A stretch of 64,000 nt of DNA. It comes from Candidatus Auribacterota bacterium (GTDB lineage: Bacteria > Auribacterota > Ancaeobacteria > Ancaeobacterales > Ancaeobacteraceae). Below the pieces are notes generated by a model. The model saw nothing but the letters and a program-made list of their open reading frames with translations, was not told where the DNA came from and ran no database searches. The translations under genes and the position numbers were made by a program. This document shows positions 1,607 through 23,702 of the stretch, one piece after another (position 1 is the first letter of the stretch; every line of letters begins with the position of its first letter). The stretch covers positions 4,956 through 68,955 of the forward strand of contig JAKLEM010000005.1 in the NCBI GenBank assembly GCA_022711655.1, read 5' to 3'.

Positions 1607-3892
1607 TTATTTGGGCGCGGCGGCTTCCAGCGTCTTGCCCAGGTAAGAGACATACGTAAGCAGCATCTTGATGTACCGCTCGCGGGCGATACCCGTATGC
1701 TTGTCGCTGAAAACATAGTACACCCCGACCGGCAGTTTCTCGCCGGAGAAACGCACGGGGATCGATATGCCGGCAGAAACATGTTTCCTGAACTGCTGCC
1801 AGCTCTGCGAGCCCGACAGGAACGGGTCGTCGAGATCCATCGTCTCGTAGCCGGAGGCCCACCCCTGTTCCTGCCGGTGCGTGAAGCGCGCCATCAGCTC
1901 GATGACGTCATGCTCGACGATAACGCCGCTGTCGCCGTAAAAGCCGTACGCTTCGCCCGGCGCGGGGACCCCGGTCCGGGCGCCGACGGGAATGAAAATG
2001 ATCTTCTCCGCCTTGCATGAGGCGGTCATGATCTTCGCCATCGCGGCGATGCACTCCCTGAGGTCGCGCTTCGCGCAGACTATCAACGCGGCTTCATGCA
2101 GCCAGTACATCTCCCAGTGCCGCTCGAACATATCCTTGAACAGCTTCTCGTTCTCCATCGCCTGCGCGATCTCGTCGCACACGATCCGCATGACCTTGTG
2201 CTCGTCCCCGGTCATCGACAGGCGGCTGACGCCCGCGACGATCAAGGCGCCGAGGATCCCCGACTTCGATATGACCGGATAGACGTATCCGGCGTGAAAC
2301 GCGGCCGCCCCGTAGATGATGCCGAGGAACCCGCTCAACGCGTCGGCATACTCGAGATCGACGGCGTACAGCGCCTGCTTCCTGTCTATGATCGTGGTGA
2401 CGACCTCCTCCGGCAGCGCCTTTATCTCGCATTCGGCCATGGGCTGCATCAGCCCGCCGTGCCCGCGCAGTAGCAGGCGGCCGCCGGCGATATCGACCGC
2501 GTACAGCGAGCAGACGGCGGAATCCATGGTCATGCCGTGGCGCTCGACGGCCATGCCGAGGATGCGTTCGACCGCGGCGGGATAATTCTTCTCGCCGACG
2601 ATCACCCTGCCGATGTCGCACAGCGCGTTCATCTCGACGGCGCGATGCGACAGCTCACGCTCGCGCTGGACGATGATGTCAAGCAGTTCGTTGTAGAGGA
2701 CGGTAAGCTGGCTGAACTCCTCATCGGCGGGGATCCGCTCGACGCGGCGATACTTGCCCTTCCCGACCGACTCTGAAAGCTCTTTGAAGAGCTGCAGCGG
2801 CCGGAGCAGGTACCTCGCCGTCGCGAACGACATGGCGACCAGGAGCGAGGCAAGCACGAGGAACACGATACCGACCGCGAGGCCGGTCATGCCGAGCAGG
2901 AGCGAAACCGACTGCAGGGTGCGGCCGTACAGGACGTACCACATGACCTCTTCGTTTTTCCCCCTGCCCAGATAGACCGGAGAGAAACCGATGACCGCCG
3001 GGCTTCCCATCAGGGAAATGTTGAGCATAAATCCGTCGCGCCGGTGTGCCATAAGGTAATTCACGAGGTCCTGGTCGATCTTCTTGTTGAGATGGCCGGG
3101 CAGCATGCTCGAGTCGAGCACGATCACGCCGTCACCGTCGATCATCAGGACGCGCCCGTACTGGATCCTGAGGTCCGACTCGACCAGGGTATTGAGATAG
3201 CCCTGGTCCACCATGCATTTGACGATCCCGATGACCGACCCCATCTCGTCGTAGATGGGCAGGGCGACGGCGACGCCGTACGAACGGGAGCTCTCGTCGT
3301 ATTCGAGGCCCGAGATATAGAGCTTGCCCTTCCCCTGGTCGTATGACTTCTGCCACCATTCCTCGTCCGCCTGAAAATAGTCTGTCGTCACGCCGCTCGC
3401 CGCGACGAGCATCCCGTAGGCGTCGGTCACGAATATCTCGCGCCATACTCCCTGTTTGTCGCCGGTATACGCCTGGAGAAAGCGCGAAGCGACCGAACCT
3501 AACAGCTGTTTCGCCGCGGCGCCGCTGCCGCCGGCCTCAAGCCACTCGGCGTTGATCCTGTCGGCGTCGCGCATGATATCGATCTTCGACCGCCCGAGAA
3601 GGCTGCGATTGCTCTGCATGACAGCCTCTTTGATCGACGGCATGCGCACGACCGCGCCGACCTCATTCGCCTCGAGGATGATGTAGCGCCGCACGCTGTC
3701 GGCGAGGACGCGGGCGATCTCGCGATAATCCGACCCGATAAACCTGATATGCCGCCAATAATAGAACGCGTACAGCAGCGTGAAGCCCACCAGCAGAAGC
3801 GCCGCGAGCTGGACCAGCATGACGAGGCAGAACCTTTTGAACAATGTTTTGCGATGGAACCAGCGTTTGACGCCGAGCAGTACGTTTTTCAT
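1607..3892 (-). CDS. Membrane sensor TM-Cache-like-TM-HAMP-GAF-GAF with no transmitter or output domain
   Basis: Two TM segments flank a periplasmic domain (EIFVTDAYG...DYFQADEEWWQ). A HAMP region (RPLQLFKELSESVGKG...DEEFSQL) is followed by two GAF-like regions. Start revised to MKNVLLG at 3892, which overlaps the asnB stop (ATGA). Confidence 0.8.
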   Translation of the reverse strand: MKNVLLGVKRWFHRKTLFKRFCLVMLVQLAALLLVGFTLLYAFYYWRHIRFIGSDYREIARVLADSVRRYIILEANEVGAVVRMPSIKEAVMQSNRSLLGRSKIDIMRDADRINAEWLEAGGSGAAAKQLLGSVASRFLQAYTGDKQGVWREIFVTDAYGMLVAASGVTTDYFQADEEWWQKSYDQGKGKLYISGLEYDESSRSYGVAVALPIYDEMGSVIGIVKCMVDQGYLNTLVESDLRIQYGRVLMIDGDGVIVLDSSMLPGHLNKKIDQDLVNYLMAHRRDGFMLNISLMGSPAVIGFSPVYLGRGKNEEVMWYVLYGRTLQSVSLLLGMTGLAVGIVFLVLASLLVAMSFATARYLLRPLQLFKELSESVGKGKYRRVERIPADEEFSQLTVLYNELLDIIVQRERELSHRAVEMNALCDIGRVIVGEKNYPAAVERILGMAVERHGMTMDSAVCSLYAVDIAGGRLLLRGHGGLMQPMAECEIKALPEEVVTTIIDRKQALYAVDLEYADALSGFLGIIYGAAAFHAGYVYPVISKSGILGALIVAGVSRLSMTGDEHKVMRIVCDEIAQAMENEKLFKDMFERHWEMYWLHEAALIVCAKRDLRECIAAMAKIMTASCKAEKIIFIPVGARTGVPAPGEAYGFYGDSGVIVEHDVIELMARFTHRQEQGWASGYETMDLDDPFLSGSQSWQQFRKHVSAGISIPVRFSGEKLPVGVYYVFSDKHTGIARERYIKMLLTYVSYLGKTLEAAAPK

Positions 3893-5781
3893 GGCACACA
3901 GCTCCTCATCCACAACTCGAGCATGACAAGCGCGAATATCTGATGTCCGAGGTCGTCGCGGCGCATCCGGTGATCGTCGAGAATGGCGCATACCGCGGGA
4001 CGGTTCACATACGCACATATGCGGGCCCCGGGGTCTCGCAGGAGATCGTCGGTGTAACGGCACAGCCCTGTCCGGAACCACTCGTGGACCGGCATCGCGA
4101 ACCCCTGCTTGCGCTGGCGCATGACCAGCTCCGGCAGGGAACCGGCAAACGCTTTTTTAACAATATGCTTGGTCACGCCGTTCTTTATCTTCATGCCGAA
4201 CGGGACCTGGGCGGCGAACTCGACGATGCGATGGTCGAGATAAGGAACGCGCACCTCGAGCGAGTGCGCCATGCTCATCCGGTCGACTTTTTTCAGGTTG
4301 TCGTCGGGCAGATAGGCGGCGGTGTCCACATACAGCATCGCCGACGAATGGTCGACCGCGCCCCGCACTTCGTCGAAATAGCCGCGGATACGGTCGAAAG
4401 AGCAGTAGTCCCCCAGCGCCGCGCGCATGTCGCCGCTATAGAGCGTCCTCCTGGTATCCGCATCGCAGCACGACACCCGCCTGATAAAGCCGTCGCGGTA
4501 ATCGTCGGCGCCGGCATCGGCCGCGCGTATCACTTTTCGCATCAGCGTGCTGCGCCACGGAACAAGCTTGAGCGACCCCGCGACCGCGCGCCTGAACATT
4601 GACGGCAGGAGCCGATAGCGCTCGAGGCGGTGGTTTGTCCGGGTCCAGGAATATCCGGCGAACGATTCGTCGCCGCCGTCGCCGGAGAGCGCCACCGTAA
4701 CCAGCCGCCTGGCGGCCTCCGATACGAGGTACGTCGGCACGAGCGACGAGTCTGCGAACGGCTCGTCGAAATACCCGGCAAGCTTCGGGAGCAGCTCGAC
4801 CATGCGCGGCCGAACGTCGAATTCGTGATGGTCGGTGCGATAACGTTCCGCGACCGCCCTCGCGTAGCGCAGCTCGCTGTAGGGCGAGCCGCCGAAGCCG
4901 ATAGAGAACGTCTTGACCGGCATGGCGACCGCCCGCTGCATCGAGGCGACGACCGTGCTGGAATCGATCCCGCCGCTCAGAAACGCCCCGATCGGCACGT
5001 CGCTGACGAGCTGTTCGCGCACGGCGTCCGACAGAAGCCCGGCGAAACAGGAGGCCAGCTCGTCGTCGTTTGCCCGCGCGTAGGGCGACTCGCGCTGCAT
5101 CTCGTAGTATCGCGACAGCCGCCAGTAGGGCCGCTCCGTCACGCCGCCGTCTTTATAGACAAGCATCCTGCCCGGCTGGAGCGATCGGATATGCCGGTAG
5201 ACGGTATTGGGCCCGGGGATATAGAGGAAGCTGAAATAGTCGTCGATCGACCTCGGGTCTATGTCGCGAGCGACGGCGCCGGACGCCAGTACCGCCTTGA
5301 TCTCGGACCCGAACACGAAGGCGTCGGCGCAGTCGGCATAGTACAGCGGCTTGATCCCCAGGCGGTCCCTCACCAGCACCATCTGATCGTTGCGGCAGTC
5401 GAGCACCGCGATCGCGAACATCCCGCGCAGATGTTCGGGAAAACAGAGCCCGTATTCCTCATAGAGGTGGACGATAACCTCGGTGTCCGTGTTGGTGCGG
5501 AACCGGTGTCCGGAGCGCAGGAGCTCTTCCCGAAGGCCGGCGAAATTATAGATCTCGCCGTTGAACACCACCGCGACGCTTTCGTCCTCGTTGAAGATCG
5601 GCTGATGTCCCGTGACCAGGTCGATCACGGAAAGCCGCTGCATCCCGATCCCGAAACGGGTGCGCGCGTACGCGCCGCTGTCGTCCGGGCCGCGGTGGCG
5701 GATAGTCGCCATCATACGCCTGAGCGTCTCGGCGGGAACCGCGCCGCCGCGTTTGTCTATAAGACCGCAGATACCGCACAT
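3889..5781 (-). CDS. asnB: Asparagine synthase (glutamine-hydrolysing) family amidotransferase, probably polysaccharide-associated
   Basis: N-terminal MCGICG with Ntn Cys2 (start revised to 5781), plus HRGPD, FNGEIYN, FLSGGIDSS, LSGDGGDE and KVDRMSMAHSLEVRVPYLD. Confidence 0.92.
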   Translation of the reverse strand: MCGICGLIDKRGGAVPAETLRRMMATIRHRGPDDSGAYARTRFGIGMQRLSVIDLVTGHQPIFNEDESVAVVFNGEIYNFAGLREELLRSGHRFRTNTDTEVIVHLYEEYGLCFPEHLRGMFAIAVLDCRNDQMVLVRDRLGIKPLYYADCADAFVFGSEIKAVLASGAVARDIDPRSIDDYFSFLYIPGPNTVYRHIRSLQPGRMLVYKDGGVTERPYWRLSRYYEMQRESPYARANDDELASCFAGLLSDAVREQLVSDVPIGAFLSGGIDSSTVVASMQRAVAMPVKTFSIGFGGSPYSELRYARAVAERYRTDHHEFDVRPRMVELLPKLAGYFDEPFADSSLVPTYLVSEAARRLVTVALSGDGGDESFAGYSWTRTNHRLERYRLLPSMFRRAVAGSLKLVPWRSTLMRKVIRAADAGADDYRDGFIRRVSCCDADTRRTLYSGDMRAALGDYCSFDRIRGYFDEVRGAVDHSSAMLYVDTAAYLPDDNLKKVDRMSMAHSLEVRVPYLDHRIVEFAAQVPFGMKIKNGVTKHIVKKAFAGSLPELVMRQRKQGFAMPVHEWFRTGLCRYTDDLLRDPGARICAYVNRPAVCAILDDHRMRRDDLGHQIFALVMLELWMRSCVP

Positions 5782-5855
5782 AATGCACCCCACCGGTGTC
5801 CAGCATCGCCGTACGCAGAAAAAGCCCAGCCATGGCAAGCGCGGCTGACAAGCTG

Positions 5856-8264
5856 TTACTGTCCCTTGCCTATCTCCTCGAGTATCCTGCGCGCCTCATC
5901 CGCGCCGTCGAAACGGCTCGATCTCGACAGCGCATCGCTCAACAGCTCGCGCGCCCTGTCGCGCTCGCCTTTCTTGAAGTACGCCAGCCCCAAATGATAG
6001 ATATAGACCGGGTTCTGCGCTTCGCTGTCGACCGCCTTCCGGAAACGCGCGATCGCCTCGTCGTAGTCCCCTTTTTGCATGAAGACCCATCCCGCGGTGT
6101 CGACGATGCGCGGCAGGCCGTTGCTCTCGTTCTCGGCCCTGACGGCGAGCTCGACCGCCCGGTCGAGCCGGGTGCCGGATTGCGCATACAGCCAGGCGAG
6201 GTTGTTGGCGGCGATGTGGTCGAACTGCAGAGACAGGGCGCTCTCGTAGCGCGCGATCGCCTGGTCGACCTTGCCCAAAGAATGGTAGATCTGCGCGGAG
6301 GTCATGAGGGCCTCGACGTTCTTGGGCTGAATGCGGAGGATCTCCTCGGCCTGCTCGAGCGCGTTGACCTCCATCCCCTTCTCGGCGTACGCCTTCATGA
6401 GATAGAGGCGCGCGGGCACGGACCGCGAGTTGAGGTCGAGCGCTTTCTCGTAAAAAGCCTGCGCGCTGTCTTTCTTTCCGACCGTCGCCAGCACCTTTCC
6501 GGCGACTTCGTAGATGCGCGGGTTCGTCGTGTGGACACGCAGCATCTTGTTGCAGAGCCTGATCGCCTTGTCGTAATTGCGCGTCTTCATGTATATCCCG
6601 ACCAGGGCGTAAAAAGCGTTCACATAATTGCTGTCATGCCCCAGCGCCTCGATATAATACGTCACGGCCTTCTCGAGGTTCTTATTCTTGTGCTCGATCA
6701 CCCCGCGGTAGAAATAGGCGTCAGGCTTCTCCGGAAAATCGAGGATGATACGATCAAGCTGCTCGATAGCGGGGCCGAAATCGCGCTGGGCCGTCACCAC
6801 GCGCGCCGCGTTCAGGCGCGCCTTGTAATTGTTCGGCTGGAGGGCGAGCGCGCGCTCGGCCTCGTGCTGCGCTTTTTTCAGTTCGCCCATCTTGAGATAG
6901 GTACCGACAAGCTCGATATGCGGGTCGAGAACGCGGGAATTGATCCGTATCGCCTCTTTGAACTCTGCAGCCGCCTTCTCATACGAACCCGAGCCTGCGA
7001 GCATCCTTCCGAAGATCAGACGGGTAAGCAGATGGTTCGGGCGCAGCTTGATCGACTGTCCGATATCCTTCATTGCCGCATCGAGCCGGCGCCGCCTGAA
7101 ATTGAATATCGCCCGCATCATAAGCGCGTCGGGATCATCCGGCGCCTGCTTGACAAACGATTCGATATACGGCTCGGCCTCGGTGAGCTTGCCCCGGAAC
7201 ACGAGCATGTTACAGATATTCTTCAGCGCCTTGAGGTAGGCGGGGTCCGCATCGTACGCCTTCTTATGCATCGCCATCGCGTTGTCGAAATCGTTTTTGT
7301 ACGCATAGCAGTCGCCCAGGATCGAATATATGATCGGATTGTTCGGCATGCAGGCGGAGGCCTGGGTGAACAACTCTATCGCCTTGTCATACTCCTTGTC
7401 ATACAGATAGGTGTTCCCGAGCTTGAAATAGACCTCGCCGGACATCTTGTCTTTCTCAAGCGCCCGTTCGTAATGCGCCCGGGCCTTCTTGACATCCTGC
7501 AGGGTGATGCTGATATCGCCCATGAGCACGTTGGCTTCGTATCCCGCCGGGTCATCTTCGTAGACCTTCTGCGCGCTTTTCAGCGCGCCCCTGGCGTCGC
7601 CGGAATAGAGCATCGTCTTTGCCATTGCCAGGTCTCCCGCGACCGCGCCTGCGGCTGGTGCGGCCGCCGCCGGGGCCGGCGTATCGGATGGCTGGTCGGA
7701 GGCCTGCTGTTGAGCGCTCAAGAGCTGCTTTATGGCATTGAATTTCAGCTTGACCGCGGCATCCGACGGATTGAGCAGTACGCACCGGTAGAGCTCCTGC
7801 GCCGCCTCGTGCAGGCGCCCCAGATGGATGTACGTCAGCGCCAGCTGGTAATGGGCTTTGAGGTAACGCGGGGCCAACTGCACGGCGTTCTTGCACTCGA
7901 TGAGGGCCTCATGGTATTTCTCGTCGTCGAAATACGCCTTCGCTCTCTCGTAAAAACGGCCTGCGCGCTCTTCCCTCGTCGGCAATAACCTGTAGACGGC
8001 CGCCGCGGCGCCGGCGATGACCGATCCGCACACCAGCGCGGCGATGCCGTACCGAACGAGGGAGGGCAGCCGCACAAAGCGCGCGCTGACGCCGTTGTAG
8101 ATCAGAATGGCCCCTTTGGCCGCAAAGCCGTACGCCTTTTTCGGGTACCGGGCGACAAGGGACATCCGATGGAGGTGATAATTGACAAAGACCTTAAAAT
8201 GATACGACAACGTACGGGTCGTTCTCCTGGCGTTCTGCCGCATCTTTTCGTATAGTTCGTTCAC
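5856..8264 (-). CDS. Large TPR protein, PrsT-like and exosortase-system associated, with an N-terminal TM anchor
   Basis: One hydrophobic segment (YGIAALVCGSVIAGAAAAVY) is followed by more than 15 TPR-like repeats. C-terminus ANNLAWLYA...DTAGWVF...YHLGLAY is typical of PrsT-like proteins. Adjacent to epsI and the exosortase. Confidence 0.8.
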   Translation of the reverse strand: MNELYEKMRQNARRTTRTLSYHFKVFVNYHLHRMSLVARYPKKAYGFAAKGAILIYNGVSARFVRLPSLVRYGIAALVCGSVIAGAAAAVYRLLPTREERAGRFYERAKAYFDDEKYHEALIECKNAVQLAPRYLKAHYQLALTYIHLGRLHEAAQELYRCVLLNPSDAAVKLKFNAIKQLLSAQQQASDQPSDTPAPAAAAPAAGAVAGDLAMAKTMLYSGDARGALKSAQKVYEDDPAGYEANVLMGDISITLQDVKKARAHYERALEKDKMSGEVYFKLGNTYLYDKEYDKAIELFTQASACMPNNPIIYSILGDCYAYKNDFDNAMAMHKKAYDADPAYLKALKNICNMLVFRGKLTEAEPYIESFVKQAPDDPDALMMRAIFNFRRRRLDAAMKDIGQSIKLRPNHLLTRLIFGRMLAGSGSYEKAAAEFKEAIRINSRVLDPHIELVGTYLKMGELKKAQHEAERALALQPNNYKARLNAARVVTAQRDFGPAIEQLDRIILDFPEKPDAYFYRGVIEHKNKNLEKAVTYYIEALGHDSNYVNAFYALVGIYMKTRNYDKAIRLCNKMLRVHTTNPRIYEVAGKVLATVGKKDSAQAFYEKALDLNSRSVPARLYLMKAYAEKGMEVNALEQAEEILRIQPKNVEALMTSAQIYHSLGKVDQAIARYESALSLQFDHIAANNLAWLYAQSGTRLDRAVELAVRAENESNGLPRIVDTAGWVFMQKGDYDEAIARFRKAVDSEAQNPVYIYHLGLAYFKKGERDRARELLSDALSRSSRFDGADEARRILEEIGKGQ

Positions 8265-8281: not shown

Positions 8282-8932
8282 TTAGCCCGCTTTTCGGAGG
8301 ATCTCGGTCACATACGTATCGATCTGCCGGGCGAACTGCTCAAGCGCCGCGACTGTTTCTTCGACCGAATCCGACACCACCGGTGACGATATCCTGACGA
8401 CGGTCAGGTCCGACCGCCGGAACACCATCCTGTTGACGATATCGATGAGGCGCTGCCGTATGCCGGGCGTCATCCGGACATCCCGTCTCGTCACCAGGTA
8501 AAAAACCGTGGCCAGCCGCTGGTCGTTCTTCCTCATCAGCATGACACGCGCGCGAAAGGCGCCGCCGTCGTCCGGCGCGATGTCATACTGCTGCTCGATG
8601 CTCCACCCCGACCCGATGTAGCAGTATATCGGGAGGTGGTACTTGTAGTTCGGGGTCTTCTTCACGCTCGGGCAGCGCGTCAGGTACACCGTTACGGGAG
8701 CGCGCCCCGGGCGCTCGTATTCACGGTACAGTATGTCCGACGCGTAGATCCTCTTTGTCAGATCGGGAACCGTATCGTCTTTGATATCGCGCCCTTTCCA
8801 ATCCCCGATCGCGTACGGGATCGTCGAGAAATCGGTGTCGCCGGGGATCCTTTCCGGCACATACGTGATAAACGCCGAGACAAGCGCCGTGATGACCATG
8901 ATAGCGACCAGCGGATAGTACCGTGCTTGCAT
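8282..8932 (-). CDS. epsI: EpsI family exosortase-associated protein
   Basis: N-terminal TM followed by IPYAIGDWKG, REY...VTVY, HLPIYCYIGSGW and VVRISSP. Start revised to MQARYY at 8932. Lies directly downstream of the exosortase. Confidence 0.8.
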   Translation of the reverse strand: MQARYYPLVAIMVITALVSAFITYVPERIPGDTDFSTIPYAIGDWKGRDIKDDTVPDLTKRIYASDILYREYERPGRAPVTVYLTRCPSVKKTPNYKYHLPIYCYIGSGWSIEQQYDIAPDDGGAFRARVMLMRKNDQRLATVFYLVTRRDVRMTPGIRQRLIDIVNRMVFRRSDLTVVRISSPVVSDSVEETVAALEQFARQIDTYVTEILRKAG

Positions 8933-8937
8933 AGCGG

Positions 8938-9792
8938 TCACGCCTTCGTCCTGCTCAACAGATTCATGACAAACTGCACCCCGAACATCCCCGACACGCC
9001 GATGACGATGACAATCGCGGTACCCAGCATCGTATGCAGCATGCCTTGCGCGTATTCCATTCCATATGTGTGCGCGATGATACCGGTCAGCGCGATCCGG
9101 ATCACGTTTGAAAGGACGGCGATCGGTATGGCGGACAGGAAGAGGACGCCGCGGCCGAGCGGTTTTTTCTGAAAGAAATAGGCGAACGCCGCGGCGACGG
9201 CAAGCAGCGATATCAGCGATCGCATGCCGCTGCACGCGTCGACGACCTCCACGCTCGTCTGAGGAAAGAACAGGTTCACCCCTTCGCGGTAGACCGGGAT
9301 GCCCGTCAGCCGTATCAGGTGCGCGGCTATCCTCGAGGCGAATATCTTCATCGGTGAAGAAAACGCCTGATAGGCCGCCTCAGGGATCGGAACGGCGAAG
9401 AGCAGATAGCTGACGGGAAAGATCAGCTCCTTCAGCAGTCCCCATCCGTAGACGAACCATACGGCGCCGGCAAGTATGATGATGAACGATACCTGGCGAA
9501 AATAGATGATACTCGCGGCCGTCCCGACGAAATAGAGCAGGATGCCCGCCAGGAACAACAGGATGTCCTTTGCCGACGGCTGCGGAGGGTCCTGCTGGAG
9601 ATACTTCGTGAGCAAGTCTTTTTTCAGGAAGACGATATACAGCGAAATGAACGGGATCGCCATGCAATGCTGGTTGTTCTCGTTCTTGTAAACGTCTTTG
9701 AGCCAGTCGGGCAGGACCGGCAGCATCAACAGCACCAGCACTGCCAGAAAGATGAACGGCATGTAGCGGCTTATCTTCGGAGCGTTATCCAT
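8938..9792 (-). CDS. epsH: Exosortase (EpsH/Xrt family)
   Basis: Polytopic membrane protein with HCMAIPFISLYIV, YLLFAVPIP, catalytic VVDACSGMRSL, NVIRI and LHT. Start probably MDNAPK at 9792. Confidence 0.9.
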   Translation of the reverse strand: MDNAPKISRYMPFIFLAVLVLLMLPVLPDWLKDVYKNENNQHCMAIPFISLYIVFLKKDLLTKYLQQDPPQPSAKDILLFLAGILLYFVGTAASIIYFRQVSFIIILAGAVWFVYGWGLLKELIFPVSYLLFAVPIPEAAYQAFSSPMKIFASRIAAHLIRLTGIPVYREGVNLFFPQTSVEVVDACSGMRSLISLLAVAAAFAYFFQKKPLGRGVLFLSAIPIAVLSNVIRIALTGIIAHTYGMEYAQGMLHTMLGTAIVIVIGVSGMFGVQFVMNLLSRTKA

Positions 9793-9852
9793 ACTAATCT
9801 TCCTTTCTGACGTCACCAGAACATCTGTTTCGCGGCAGCTGGCGGACCCCGG

Positions 9853-19041: not shown

Positions 19042-20721
19042 TTATTGCTCCTTTTCCTTTGTTTCGATCTTGAACTTCTCGCCTTCCAACGCCACCAGCC
19101 GCGTCCGCGCTTTTTCAAGCCATTCGACCGACGTTGCTTTGTTCATCGTCACCTTCAGGTAATACTCGCGCGCCTTGTCCGGCTCTCCAAGCTTCTCGTA
19201 CGCGGCCGCGATCTCGCAGAGCTCATGGCCGTCGCTGACAGATTCGTTGATCTTCAGCATCTCCTGATAGGTCTTCACGACGTCTTCGTATTTGCCCATC
19301 TGCTTGTAGCAATCGGCGATGTTCTCTATCGCATCGTCGATCAGCTCTTTCTCGGAATAGGTGCCGATAGACTGGCGAAAGCTGTTGATCGCGTCGTCGT
19401 ATCTTTTGTCCTTGAGCTGCAGCTTCCCGATCCAGAACTGCGAATACGCCCTGCGCTTGCCGTTGGGGAATATGGCGATGGCTTTCTGATAGTTCTCGAT
19501 CGCTCCCGTGTCGTCGCCCATCATCTCGAGGCAGGCGCCGAGAAAATAGTAGGCGTCCTCGACTGCCATGCTCTTCGGATACTTCGCGATGAATTTCTTA
19601 TAATACCTGGACGCCTGCCGGTAATCCTTCTGGGAGTGCATGGTGGCCGCGCGGTCGATGATGTATTCGGGGCTGTTGATGCGCTTGCCGTACAAGAAGA
19701 CGAAGATCATGCCGAAAAAGATCATCGTGGCGACGGTGATCTTGCGGTGAAGCGCCTTTCGCTTGATCTTCGCCTCTTCCTTCTTCTTTTCGTGCCGGAT
19801 CTTCTCCTCCAGCATTTCCCTGTCTTCCTTCTTGAAGTCCTCGAGCGATTCGCTCACCTCTTCGGGCTTTCTCGCCATACCGATGGTCTTGCGCAGTTTC
19901 TTCGCCCTGTCGCTCTTTTCGATCTGGAGGACCCGGTCCTCGGGCCCGTAGACAACGACCTCGAAATCGGTGCCGTTGTCGAAGAACTTCGGTTCCTTCA
20001 GCCCGGCCTGTTTCAGATAATTCTTCATACGCGTCACGCCGGTCCCGAGCTTCTCGACATAATCTCCCTCGTAGAACATGGCTTCGACGAGGTTCTTGTT
20101 GCGGAGGAACTGCGTCGATTCTATGTTCGTCACGTTGGTCGGGGCGCACAGGCCGCCCGGCGAATAGAACTCTATCTTGTCGTCGAACATGAAGATCCGG
20201 CAGGTGCTGCCGGCGACGCTGTAGTCGCGGTGGATCAGCGCGTTGACCACGATCTCGCGCAGCGCGTCGAGCGGGTATTCGGGGACGTCGGTCCTCTTCA
20301 CTCCCTGCACGCTGCCGAACAGCTTCATGTTGCGCACCAGGAAATGCTCCGACTCCTCGATCATCTGAGGCACGGTGCCGCGCAGCTCTTTTTGCTCGAT
20401 GATGTGTCCCGACTTGTCTTTGCCGCTGAACCGCACGATCTTGACGCTGCTCGACCAAAGGTATTTCTGCGGGTTTTTCCCGAAAAGCAGCAGCCCGGTC
20501 ACCGTCGGATAGATCTTGCCTCCCTCTTTAGCGATCACCTTCATCTCGAGAAGGATCGCTTCGTCGGTCGCGACGACCGACTTGATCTCCCGCTTTGCAA
20601 TGATCTTGGCGACGAACTCCTTCAACTGGTCGGCGCTGAGATCGCTGAGGCTCGCCTCGACTATCGGCTTTTCGTCGAAATTCATCGCGTCATAGGATGG
20701 GCTTTTGCTCTCGTTTTCCAT
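19042..20721 (-). CDS. HATPase_c_4 / RecG-C-like ATP-binding domain + coiled coil + TM + periplasmic TPR repeats
   Basis: TVTGLLLFGKNPQ, EYPLDALREIVVNALIHRDY, SPGGL, RNKNL and VEKLGTG. Then a TM (ITVATMIFFGMIFVFLY) and CpoB/BamD-like TPRs (FIAKYPKS...AYYFLG). Start revised to MENESK at 20721. Confidence 0.75.
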   Translation of the reverse strand: MENESKSPSYDAMNFDEKPIVEASLSDLSADQLKEFVAKIIAKREIKSVVATDEAILLEMKVIAKEGGKIYPTVTGLLLFGKNPQKYLWSSSVKIVRFSGKDKSGHIIEQKELRGTVPQMIEESEHFLVRNMKLFGSVQGVKRTDVPEYPLDALREIVVNALIHRDYSVAGSTCRIFMFDDKIEFYSPGGLCAPTNVTNIESTQFLRNKNLVEAMFYEGDYVEKLGTGVTRMKNYLKQAGLKEPKFFDNGTDFEVVVYGPEDRVLQIEKSDRAKKLRKTIGMARKPEEVSESLEDFKKEDREMLEEKIRHEKKKEEAKIKRKALHRKITVATMIFFGMIFVFLYGKRINSPEYIIDRAATMHSQKDYRQASRYYKKFIAKYPKSMAVEDAYYFLGACLEMMGDDTGAIENYQKAIAIFPNGKRRAYSQFWIGKLQLKDKRYDDAINSFRQSIGTYSEKELIDDAIENIADCYKQMGKYEDVVKTYQEMLKINESVSDGHELCEIAAAYEKLGEPDKAREYYLKVTMNKATSVEWLEKARTRLVALEGEKFKIETKEKEQ

Positions 20722-20759: not shown

Positions 20760-21659
20760 CTAGTTGTCCTCTGTCGCATCCTTGAACATCGATTTGCGCT
20801 CCTGCTCGACATCCTTTTTCATCCACTGCTCGATGTTCTTCATGACGCTGTAGAAGTCGCCCAGCGAGACGCTGTCGCTGCGGACATCCCGCTGTTGCGC
20901 GATGTGTTCCTGCATCTTCATGCTGCCCACGTAATCGCCGAAACGCGATTGGCTTGAGGCCATCATGTTGAAGAGATAGCCGAAGAAGCATCCGAGCATC
21001 AGGCAAACGATAACGATGAGCAGATACTTGTTGGAAAAGAGCTGCTCGAAATACAGCTTGACCGCCCGCGCCATCGGTATCGAATGAATGTAATACCGCT
21101 CGATACGCTTTCTGTCCTGCTCGAGCACTTTGGCGCTGGAGGTGACCTGGTCGTGCAGATCGCTCCATTTCTTCTGGAGCAGGTCTTTCTGGGAGACGTC
21201 CTTTTCCCAGTAGAAATCCCTCATCGTGTCGAGATACGGCATCTTACCGAACTTCGCGCGGTGGAGGACATATTTGATCAGCGAAAGAAGGTATTCGACG
21301 TCGAAGGGTTTCGTGATGTAATCGAAAACGCCGTAGCGCACCGCGTTCACGACCGCGTCTTTCCGCTTGCCGTAGGCGGTCAGGATAAGAATGCTGACGG
21401 CGGTATTGAACTGCCTGATGCGCTTGATAGTCTCGATGCCGTCTATCCCCGGCATCATGATGTCGACGATGATCAGGTCGAAGGCCTGCTTCTGAGCAAG
21501 GTCGACGCCCTTTTCGCCGTTGTCGGCACACGAGACCTCGTAGCCCTCCGCGGTCAGTATGTCGCTGATGAGGTTCAGGATCGACTCCTCATCGTCGATC
21601 ACCAGTACTTTCGCACTGACACTACTCTTCGCTTCTTCGGGTGCTTGATTCGAGTGCAT
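20760..21659 (-). CDS. Response regulator receiver + coiled coil + C-terminal TM (membrane-anchored, no DNA-binding domain)
   Basis: KVLVIDDE, LIIVDIMMP, LTAYG and KPF, followed by a hydrophobic segment YLLIVIVCLMLGCFFGYLF. Confidence 0.8.
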   Translation of the reverse strand: MHSNQAPEEAKSSVSAKVLVIDDEESILNLISDILTAEGYEVSCADNGEKGVDLAQKQAFDLIIVDIMMPGIDGIETIKRIRQFNTAVSILILTAYGKRKDAVVNAVRYGVFDYITKPFDVEYLLSLIKYVLHRAKFGKMPYLDTMRDFYWEKDVSQKDLLQKKWSDLHDQVTSSAKVLEQDRKRIERYYIHSIPMARAVKLYFEQLFSNKYLLIVIVCLMLGCFFGYLFNMMASSQSRFGDYVGSMKMQEHIAQQRDVRSDSVSLGDFYSVMKNIEQWMKKDVEQERKSMFKDATEDN

Positions 21660-22031: not shown

Positions 22032-23702
22032 TTATGACTTGTACGGCAACTTTATCGTGAACGTCGATCCCCGGCCGATCGCACTTGTCGCCTCAATGTC
22101 CCCGCCAAACCCTTCGATGATACCCTTGCTGACCGATAAACCCAACCCGGTCCCGCTGCCGTCAGTCCAATTTGAATAGAACGGATCGAATATGCTTTCA
22201 AGCTTATTCTTATCGATCCCGCAGCCGCTGTCCTTCACCGAAAGCCTTATCCACTCCTCATCCTGCGAGGTCGAGATCAGGAGCTCGCCGCCTTTCGGCA
22301 TCGCCTTGACGGCGTTCAGCATGACATTGATCGCCACCTGCATGAACTGATCGCCGTCGATCAAAACTTCGGGGAGTTTCTTATTGAAATCTTTAACGAG
22401 TGATATATTACTCTTTTTTATTTCCGGCAGCAAGAGATTTAATGAATTATCTACGATCACGTTGAGGTCGTGAAGCTGCGTCTTCGTTTTCGCGATCTTG
22501 GCGAAATTGAGCAGGTTTCCCAAGATCCGGGATATCCGCTCCACTTCCGATTTGACGACGGAGAGCAGCCGTATCGTCTCGGGGTCGACTGTCGACCGGA
22601 GCAGCTGCTGTATCCTCCCGTATATGGAGGTGAGCGGATTGTTGATCTCGTGCGACAGGCTCGCGGCAAGCTTGCCTATCGCGGCGAACTTTTCCGACCG
22701 TATCAGCTGGTCGTGGGCCTTCTTGACCTCGGTCTTGGCCGTCGTCAGATGGTCGATGAGCTGCGCGTTCTCGATGATCGCGGCGATCTGCGCGGCGAGC
22801 GGCTCGAGGACCCTTCTGTCCTCCTCGTTGAAAGGCTTTCCGTCGGTCTTGTTGTTGACGTTGAGGACGCCGAACACCTTGTCTTTGATCTTCAGCGGGA
22901 CGCTCAGGAGCGACTTCGTCATGTATCGCTCTTCGTTCCTGCCCATAAAACGGCCGTCTTCGTCGATGTCGCCGATCAGGAGCGACTGGCCCTCCTTGAA
23001 GACCCACCCCGATATCCCCTGCCCCCGCTTGATAGTGGTCGCCTGCATGATCTCGGGAACAAGGCCTATCGCCTCCTTGATCTCGAGCTGGTCCGTCTCC
23101 TCGTTCAGGAGCATCACCGAACAGATCTTAACCTTCATGACGTTCGTGATAAGGTGTATGATCATCTTGAGAAGCGTTTCGAGGTGGAACACGGAACCCG
23201 TGATCCTGCTCGCCTCGTACAAGAGCGATATCTTGAGGCCCTTCTCTTCGCTCAGCTCCGCAGACTGCGCGGCGCACTTTTCGGCGAGCGCGCGGATCTG
23301 ATGCTCCTGAAGGGCCGTGCGGAACCCGTGGCGGACCGCCATCGCCACCTGCTCGGGGCGCCCGGCATCGACGCAGTCGTACGCGCCTTTCGCGACGCGC
23401 CCTGCGACGGCCTGCGCGCCGGGATCACGGATCGCCAGGACATACGCGACCGGCAGCGGATAGCTGCGCAGCCAGTTCTGGAACCCGTCCTGATCGAACG
23501 CGACAGCCGCTTCGTTCACGACGACGACGGATATTGATTTGTTCCTGATGTCGTTAAAGAGGGCCGCGACCGAGGGCTGGTGCCAGACCTTGTAGTCGGG
23601 AGTCAGCAAAGGCTGAAGTGAATTCTTGAGCGCGCCATCGGCATCGACGACGAGAACATGCGGGGCGACAACACAACCGTTCTGGCTCTTGTCAGCGGGC
23701 AT
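22032..23702 (-). CDS. Cytoplasmic histidine kinase: pseudo-receiver + GAF + HisKA + HATPase_c (NtrB-like)
   Basis: Degenerate REC (VVVVNE where the phospho-Asp would be), GAF (SLLSVPLKIKDKVFGVLNV), SLSHEINNPL, NVMLNAVKA, DSGCGI and GTGLGL. No TM. Confidence 0.9.
   Translation of the reverse strand: MPADKSQNGCVVAPHVLVVDADGALKNSLQPLLTPDYKVWHQPSVAALFNDIRNKSISVVVVNEAAVAFDQDGFQNWLRSYPLPVAYVLAIRDPGAQAVAGRVAKGAYDCVDAGRPEQVAMAVRHGFRTALQEHQIRALAEKCAAQSAELSEEKGLKISLLYEASRITGSVFHLETLLKMIIHLITNVMKVKICSVMLLNEETDQLEIKEAIGLVPEIMQATTIKRGQGISGWVFKEGQSLLIGDIDEDGRFMGRNEERYMTKSLLSVPLKIKDKVFGVLNVNNKTDGKPFNEEDRRVLEPLAAQIAAIIENAQLIDHLTTAKTEVKKAHDQLIRSEKFAAIGKLAASLSHEINNPLTSIYGRIQQLLRSTVDPETIRLLSVVKSEVERISRILGNLLNFAKIAKTKTQLHDLNVIVDNSLNLLLPEIKKSNISLVKDFNKKLPEVLIDGDQFMQVAINVMLNAVKAMPKGGELLISTSQDEEWIRLSVKDSGCGIDKNKLESIFDPFYSNWTDGSGTGLGLSVSKGIIEGFGGDIEATSAIGRGSTFTIKLPYKS

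Follow-up and report, generated by a model that had tools for sequence, protein, structure and literature searches.

A membrane-anchored relative of Schlafen-associated GHKL ATPases with predicted periplasmic TPRs is encoded in polysaccharide-export loci of uncultivated bacteria

Introduction

The pairing of an AlbA_2 (Schlafen) domain with a GHKL module has been named 'Schlatpase', and the PF13749 (HATPase_c_4) domain of one such protein, RzAgo, binds and hydrolyzes ATP, with nucleotide binding leading to dimers and tetramers and with the N-box residues E314 and N318 coordinating the gamma-phosphate and Mg (preprint 10.64898/2026.05.29.728809). The SLFN-pAgo defense genes have no conserved partners according to the same preprint, in which fusions of Schlatpases to TPRs are mentioned in passing. 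Here we describe a membrane-anchored relative of these proteins, the 559-residue product of a gene found in a 64,000-nucleotide stretch of the genome of a Candidatus Auribacterota bacterium (hereafter the window), in which a GHKL module is followed by a charged linker, a single transmembrane (TM) helix and a TPR domain predicted to be periplasmic. Both domain families were already known; our literature search found no description of a GHKL-TM-periplasmic-TPR protein, nor of TPR/secretin partners or a GHKL-TM-TPR-like component for exosortase or Wzx/Wzy loci.

The window protein and the Schlatpases (the N-terminal module of RzAgo, and DIP2311, PDB entry 3LMM) share a homologous PF13749 module together with the subdomain upstream of it (35-39% identity over ~250 residues), the invariant N-box, RN and G-x-G residues, and the same fold as judged by structural comparison with 3LMM. 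The window protein differs in having neither AlbA_2, nor the helix-turn-helix (HTH) domain that forms the C terminus of the majority form, nor Argonaute, and in being membrane-anchored with a periplasmic TPR domain, whereas the soluble AlbA_2-GHKL-TPR fusions noted in the preprint (e.g. P0210) have no TM helix. Its family is, moreover, fixed in polysaccharide-export operons rather than in defense islands.

Three further groups of described proteins resemble it in part. GspA/ExeA, the ATPase that acts with ExeB in secretin assembly for type II secretion, likewise spans the inner membrane once, with its ATPase on the cytoplasmic side and a domain for interactions in the periplasm, and its gene accompanies that of a secretin, but it combines an AAA+ P-loop ATPase with a peptidoglycan-binding domain and has no sequence homology to the GHKL-TPR combination described here; as ExeA-like AAA_22 genes co-occur in three of the loci, the window-type protein does not replace ExeA. 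The TPR secretin pilotins PilF/PilW/Tgl and the periplasmic TPR proteins BamD/CpoB have a short all-TPR periplasmic domain of similar size and resemble the window protein in Foldseek and NCBIfam comparisons, but are outer-membrane lipoproteins or soluble periplasmic proteins, whereas in the window protein 327 cytoplasmic residues precede an inner-membrane tether. AlgK, PelB, BcsC and PgaA also provide periplasmic TPRs for polysaccharide export, yet they act on the outer-membrane porin side of synthase-dependent systems, whereas the window gene carries an ATPase module and lies in a locus with a polysaccharide co-polymerase (PCP), a BY-kinase, Wzy_C and an exosortase.

We propose, giving the idea an even chance of being correct, that the GHKL-TM-TPR protein is a bitopic inner-membrane accessory that serves a Wzx/Wzy-like route of polysaccharide export of the exosortase (XrtA) type. 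What the computational analysis establishes is the architecture, the predicted topology, ATP-site residues that are all in place, the monophyly of the family, purifying selection on it and its conserved linkage to other genes. The core of an original prediction, made by a model reading the DNA letters of the window, was that a GHKL domain had been repurposed in a transmembrane protein tied to an export machine, and architecture and gene linkage bear this out.

Results and Discussion

A GHKL Module with Intact ATP-Site Residues Precedes a Membrane Helix and TPRs

The mechanical open reading frame (ORF) of the gene reaches back to position 21168 on the minus strand, but the corresponding 708-residue version was rejected, as it overlaps the coding sequence of the upstream receiver gene in another frame and the orthologs begin at the equivalent ATG. 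The receiver gene stops at a TAG at positions 20760-20762 and the next ATG, at 20721, gives the 559-residue product. Pfam matches on this product comprise HATPase_c_4 (PF13749) over residues 171-256 and TPR families across residues 353-525. As originally predicted, neither AlbA_2 (PF04326) nor an HTH domain is matched by Pfam in the protein: the start codon lies only 38 nucleotides past the upstream stop, leaving no room for AlbA_2, and residues 259-559 are occupied by the linker, TM helix and TPRs. The full-length AlphaFold2 model, built on a 56-sequence alignment (mean predicted local distance difference test score, pLDDT, 89.4), features an alpha/beta module (residues 10-258), a low-confidence charged stretch (265-301), a continuous helix (299-348) and helix pairs (351-558). 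The charged coiled coil proposed earlier is borne out only in part: the charge is present, and the model shows a disordered or low-confidence segment followed by a single long helix that passes through the membrane.

Modeled alone, the N-terminal module reaches a pLDDT of 92.1 and a predicted TM-score of 0.89, and a Foldseek search with it returns DIP2311/3LMM as the top solved structure (TM-score 0.70, E 3.6e-14), which is also the sole PDB entry covering the module by sequence. The following matches are the catalytic and ATP-binding (CA) domains of the histidine kinases HK853, CpxA and VanS and the mitochondrial kinases PDK2/4 and BCK (E ~1e-4), pointing to a Bergerat (GHKL) fold for the modeled module. 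The same region is matched by positions 175-435 of the PADLOC pAgo model (E 1.4e-18). The motifs on which the original prediction was based are all present, namely REIVVNALIHRDY at residues 155-167, SPGGL at 187-191, RN at 207-208 and EKLGTG at 223-228. Across alignments of 56 and 69 relatives, E156, N160, H164, N208 and G228 are invariant and F80, G81, P84, G115, P150, A161, R165, Y167, P188, G189, R207 and G226 are at least 90% conserved, and the window protein keeps every one of them. Its ATP-site residues, consisting of the N-box E-x3-N, RN and the G-x-G of the G2-box, are thus intact, and E156 and N160 align with E314 and N318 of RzAgo. The original prediction saw in the cytoplasmic domain a possible energizer or signaling switch of a trans-envelope coupler; by analogy, the published biochemistry favors an ATP-driven oligomerization switch for this GHKL family.

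The sole strongly hydrophobic segment, ITVATMIFFGMIFVFLYG, spans residues 328-345, in line with the one TM helix anticipated from the sequence, and the window protein has no N-terminal hydrophobic segment, signal peptide or lipobox. Lys and Arg residues number eight in the N-terminal flank of the helix and two in the C-terminal one, a pattern found in 7/7 orthologs tested, and such positive-inside flanks predict an N-in topology with residues 1-327 cytoplasmic and the TPRs periplasmic. In the linker that precedes the helix, the motif Q-[IV]-E-K-x-D-R-x-x-K is still recognizable in distant orthologs, and the linker, although modeled as disordered, is above the TPR domain in conservation among close orthologs (77-95% identity).

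The TPR domain begins ~5 residues beyond the membrane helix in the combined AlphaFold2 and TM predictions. So short a tether would keep it close to the inner membrane and well away from the pore in the outer membrane, so that any partner must be inner-membrane-proximal. Twenty-four of its residues are invariant across seven orthologs. C397 and C471 are invariant periplasmic cysteines. Foldseek matches to this part are generic TPR proteins (consensus TPRs, BamD, MamA, PilF and OGT). The resemblance to CpoB and BamD noted in the original prediction is real in that these are the best NCBIfam TPR matches, but family membership does not follow, with scores of 83.6 bits against a cut-off of 90.1 for YbgF/CpoB (TIGR02795) and 36.2 against 81.4 for BamD (TIGR03302), and with the gene in neither a tol-pal nor a bam context. 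Scores for PilW (34.7 against 154), Tgl (22.5 against 225) and the ~900-residue all-TPR lipoprotein PrsT (TIGR02917; 29.2 against 312.2) likewise lie below their cut-offs. A homolog of the TM-TPR half is found in P0242 (L116, positions 214-1254), a 346-residue protein with an unrelated 110-residue N terminus and no GHKL module, encoded on a contig of only 1.3 kb.

The Family Groups as One Clade among Schlafen-GHKL Proteins

Relatives were sought at an overall scale of about 15 billion proteins. A word-indexed search of 5.8 billion clusters returned four full-length relatives. Four further clusters, as well as some fragments, came from an exhaustive profile search covering 1.84 billion representatives, and 185,579 species genomes held two matches, in an Omnitrophica metagenome-assembled genome (MAG) and a Planctomycetia-labeled MAG. 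A TPR-specific pattern run over 241 million JGI metagenome records gave nothing new, returning two already-known lineages and one weak TPR match. In total, 12 lineages were obtained (the window, L001, L124, L004, L008, L121-123, L010, L118, L117, L007, L009 and L119), which span Auribacterota, including Ca. Ancaeobacter aquaticus (L004), Omnitrophota and one Planctomycetota-labeled MAG, and all of which lie in polysaccharide-export loci. The possibility that the architecture is confined to one assembly is thereby removed, and a chimera or recent-fusion artifact was rejected, the 12 lineages residing on independent contigs from JGI, ENA, Logan and NCBI. Within the phylum of the window, the gene occurs in two of 79 species genomes, that of the window and that of Ca. 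Ancaeobacter aquaticus (G001), which belongs to the same family.

When a maximum-likelihood tree is built from the GHKL region, all 11 membrane forms of full length group together (support 94/89), surrounded by canonical AlbA_2-GHKL-HTH proteins, so that by sequence the family is a single clade nested inside the Schlatpase radiation. AlbA_2 is kept at the N terminus in five lineages (L007, L009, L010, L117 and L119) and is absent in seven; well-supported branches force three independent losses. These absences are real, since no more than ~40 nucleotides separate the start codon of any gene without AlbA_2 from the end of the gene before it. Where the domain is retained, the alignment places Pro or Ser at the position of the conserved 'GE' Glu of canonical members, which we take to be the first catalytic Glu of the Schlafen nuclease E-x4-E...D triad, and this points to a nuclease that was already inactive in the lineages retaining AlbA_2.

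Between close orthologs, dN amounts to 0.14 in the GHKL module and 0.24-0.29 in the TPR domain, with dS saturated (>1.5), and dN/dS can consequently be given only as an upper bound of ~0.1. These values indicate purifying selection on both halves. Together with a distribution over 12 lineages that reaches down to ~35% identity, they uphold the proposal that a Schlafen-partner GHKL domain has been repurposed.

Gene Linkage Is Firmest with a Membrane-Anchored Receiver and PCP/BY-Kinase Genes

The window locus is an XrtA-type polysaccharide locus. As originally noted, the GHKL-TM-TPR gene sits between receiver genes and a fusion of the Poly_export domain of outer-membrane polysaccharide export (OPX) proteins with secretin domains, the ATG of the fusion gene (19037) lying 4 nucleotides past the GHKL-TM-TPR stop codon. 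A protein with a receiver domain and a TM helix (hereafter the receiver-TM protein) is encoded directly upstream in 11/12 lineages and a GAF histidine kinase upstream in nine, while PCP and BY-kinase genes follow downstream in all ten loci whose contig reaches far enough. Pfam finds no DNA-binding domain in any relay component of the window, whether the kinase, the two receivers or the GHKL-TM-TPR protein itself.

The Poly_export-secretin fusion comes next downstream, or after one small gene, in 8/11 informative loci, and in the phylum of the window the GHKL-TM-TPR gene, the secretin fusion and the receiver TM-tail module are all confined to the same two of 79 genomes; the expected linkage to the secretin in relatives is thus found. 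With seven clusters among 5.8 billion, the fusion is itself about as rare as the GHKL-TM-TPR gene. In a reverse search from the fusion, both new loci inspected (L123 and L124) have a GHKL-TM-TPR gene upstream, and none of the fusion loci examined is without one; a 'full-length' secretin match in genome G061 was discarded as an OPX fusion, being an ordinary PilQ in a pilMNOP-like row. The three remaining loci (L007, L009 and L119) have no secretin fusion and instead encode an ordinary Poly_export+SLBB OPX, with an ABC transporter downstream, from which it follows that the GHKL-TM-TPR protein is not secretin-specific. Compared with the secretin, the membrane-anchored receiver and PCP/BY-kinase are the more constant partners.

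The Receiver Protein Carries a Conserved Periplasmic Tail

Beyond its membrane helix (G..FGY motif), the receiver-TM protein has a predicted periplasmic tail with the conserved amphipathic motif [LV]-x-D-F-Y-x-x-[LM]-x-x-[IL]-E-x-W-[ML]-K...E. In the product of positions 20760-21659 the tail corresponds to about residues 240-299 and includes …LGDFYSVMKNIEQWMKKDVEQ…. The TM helix is conserved in 11 lineages together with the tail motif D-F-Y-x2-[LM]-x2-[IL]-E-x-W, which persists also where the tail sequence around it has diverged. A short conserved helix of this kind next to the inner membrane is the type of ligand that a membrane-tethered TPR domain could bind. An extra small membrane protein, paralogous to the TM and tail module only, is encoded in the three secretin-less loci (L007 5902-6264, L009 9150-9533 and L119 7435-7779). 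A word-indexed global search with the module retrieved the window's own clade only, the word index making any wider distribution unreadable.

A Possible ATP-Gated Adaptor and Its Alternatives

More specifically, the protein may act as an ATP-gated adaptor, coupling a GAF-kinase/receiver relay free of DNA-binding parts to the periplasmic base of the export machinery close to the inner membrane; we consider this model equally apt to prove right or wrong. By analogy with SLFN-pAgo, ATP binding would drive the cytoplasmic module into a dimer or oligomer, and this oligomeric state would be set or read by the membrane-anchored response regulator, fed by the GAF histidine kinase and with no DNA-binding output. 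The TPR domain would then relay the state by binding an inner-membrane-proximal periplasmic partner, for which the C-terminal tail helix of the response regulator is the best candidate and the PCP base or the OPX Poly_export domain are others, thereby placing assembly or gating of the export conduit under post-translational control. A stronger version, in which a defense-derived ATP switch has been domesticated as a DNA-binding-free two-component output, so that a phosphorylated receiver would trigger oligomerization and lead the TPRs to open, assemble or dock the secretin exporter, is possible but, in our judgment, rather doubtful.

Several observations weigh against the adaptor model. The sample is small, with 12 lineages of uncultivated bacteria, and gene linkage, which mirrors inheritance of the whole locus, cannot alone assign a role. 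We only infer the ATP dependence, binding partners and signaling direction of the window protein, and the SPGGL motif shows no obvious counterpart of the G1-box Asp of classical GHKL ATPases, making nucleotide affinity uncertain. The TM helix is weakly conserved (22-52% identity between close orthologs), which argues against a specific TM-TM contact. Finally, L117 lacks a receiver-TM gene immediately upstream and has a small HTH_17 gene in its place, and G001 encodes another receiver-TM paralog, 49% identical and with the same tail motif, at an unrelated locus (L125 2439-3278, contig 71) with neither export genes nor a second GHKL-TPR gene.

Among other roles, that of a secretin pilot or assembly factor, as suggested in the original prediction, would have the TPR domain chaperone or position the Poly_export-secretin in the manner of PilF, PilW or Tgl, or would use GHKL energy in a GspA/ExeA-like way. 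We judge it unlikely, and a dedicated pilot less likely than the ATP-gated adaptor: the immediate proximity of the fusion gene, its recurrence in most informative loci, the occurrence of a GHKL-TM-TPR gene in every fusion locus examined, the presence of PilF among the Foldseek matches and the ExeA-like N-in bitopic topology all speak for such a role, but it is contradicted by the three lineages with an ordinary OPX and no secretin, by a TPR domain held on a five-residue inner-membrane tether with neither signal peptide nor lipobox, by the sub-threshold PilW, Tgl, BamD and CpoB scores, and by the absence (Pfam) of the AAA+ and peptidoglycan-binding domains of ExeA. The location of periplasmic TPRs within a polysaccharide locus would also suit a polymer scaffold akin to AlgK, PelB, BcsC or PgaA, guiding the chain or recruiting modifying enzymes, with the GHKL half as a vestigial anchor, and P0242 suggests that the TPR half can work separately. 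P0242 comes from a single short contig, however, known TPR scaffolds are outer-membrane lipoproteins or porin-fused rather than anchored in the inner membrane, and the GHKL half, with all ATP-site residues in place and with conservation exceeding that of the rest of the protein, is not vestigial; the scaffold has, in our view, a slim chance.

Two further roles appear very improbable. As the nearest solved folds after 3LMM are kinases and as two receivers and a BY-kinase are encoded nearby, the GHKL module might phosphorylate or sequester a receiver or the BY-kinase, similar to PDK/BCK or to SpoIIAB-type anti-sigma kinases; yet the protein has no phospho-acceptor domain (HisKA, i.e. a DHp domain), the locus already has the gene of a complete histidine kinase further upstream, and the only biochemistry on PF13749 is of ATP hydrolysis and oligomerization rather than phosphotransfer. 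Descent from defense-associated Schlafen-GHKL proteins and retention of AlbA_2 in five lineages would in turn be expected of a membrane-tethered Schlatpase that resides in a polysaccharide locus as an anti-phage sensor, its TPRs detecting envelope attack and eliciting a Schlafen-type nuclease response. Against such a sensor stand a window protein devoid of an effector domain, the three independent losses of AlbA_2, the substitution that the alignment suggests for the 'GE' Glu where the domain is kept, linkage to export genes that is conserved across phyla, in contrast to the SLFN-pAgo defense genes, and a window genome with no other Schlatpase.

If correct, the adaptor model would provide the first case of a Schlafen-associated GHKL ATPase outside nucleic-acid or defense biology. 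The family shows that constraint on the GHKL half can stay strong even when the Schlafen half has been lost repeatedly. The genes for the GAF kinase, the membrane-anchored receiver, the GHKL-TM-TPR protein and PCP/BY-kinase, to which that of the Poly_export-secretin may be added, form a compact co-inherited module and offer a testable model for switching polysaccharide export without transcription, and the GHKL-TM-TPR protein is the most likely accessory factor of an undescribed secretin-type polysaccharide exit. Should the domestication version also hold, polymer secretion would be under a new form of post-translational control exerted across the membrane. Extreme rarity and confinement to uncultivated bacteria of the PVC group limit the reach of these findings.

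Other Features of the Loci

The coordinates of all window features are collected in Table 1. Gene spacing in the window is tight, with promoter-like and terminator-like sites not above shuffled expectation, and a Wzy_C protein and glycosyltransferases are encoded further downstream.

Table 1. Features of the GHKL-TM-TPR gene and of its neighbors in the window
Feature	Positions	Strand	Basis
GHKL-TM-TPR gene, whole (559 aa: GHKL module, linker, TM, TPR)	19042..20721	-	ORF and start codon, Pfam, AlphaFold2 model (pLDDT 89.4)
Predicted cytoplasmic GHKL (Bergerat-fold) module, residues 10-258, N-terminal subdomain and ATP-binding core	19948..20694	-	Model, Foldseek, PADLOC
PF13749 HATPase_c_4 match, residues 171-256	19954..20211	-	Pfam, E 8.5e-17, 61.4 bits against a cut-off of 26
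N-box E156-x3-N160, predicted Mg/gamma-phosphate ligands	20242..20256	-	Invariant in 56- and 69-sequence alignments
Charged juxtamembrane linker, residues 259-327	19741..19947	-	Low pLDDT at 265-301; 77-95% identical among close orthologs
Single transmembrane helix, residues 328-345	19687..19740	-	Kyte-Doolittle maximum 1.85, positive-inside flanks, within model helix 299-348
Predicted periplasmic TPR domain, residues 351-558, five helix pairs and capping helix	19048..19671	-	Pfam, AlphaFold2, Foldseek
Membrane-anchored response regulator (receiver, linker, TM, periplasmic tail helix), 299 aa	20760..21659	-	Pfam Response_reg only; TM and tail motif
Single-domain receiver, 128 aa	21622..22008	-	Conserved in the window's clade
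GAF-HisKA-HATPase_c histidine kinase	22032..23702	-	Pfam; conserved upstream in 9 lineages
Poly_export + Secretin_N + Secretin outer-membrane protein	17580..19037	-	Pfam; ATG 19037, 4 nt past the GHKL-TM-TPR stop
Polysaccharide co-polymerase PCP (Wzz/GNVR, XrtA-type chain-length determinant)	16091..17554	-	Pfam, NCBIfam
BY-kinase, C-terminal YYYYYY cluster	15353..16087	-	Pfam, NCBIfam
Exosortase EpsH	8938-9816	-	Same operon
EpsI/DUF3485	8282-9235	-	Same operon
802-aa all-TPR PrsT-like protein	5856-8264	-	Same operon
Asparagine synthase	3889-5838	-	Same operon

In the three secretin-less loci, an ExeA/GspA-like AAA_22 ATPase (L007 1519-2325, L009 4689-5498 and L119 2770-3576), followed by an HD-domain protein, is encoded upstream of the GAF kinase. 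Three other loci have, between the GHKL-TM-TPR gene and the secretin fusion, a gene for a 180-215-residue protein (L008 2991-3638, L010 12352-12897 and L122 4190-4738) with an N-terminal membrane segment and Lys/Glu/Tyr-rich repeats (…YKxKYGxxYxxKLKEDY…), which has no Pfam match and is absent in the window's clade. Small HTH_17 (excisionase/MerR-like) genes are located just upstream of the receiver or GHKL-TM-TPR gene in L008 (72-296), L117 (1531-1779) and L118 (184-619), where they could supply the missing DNA-binding element.

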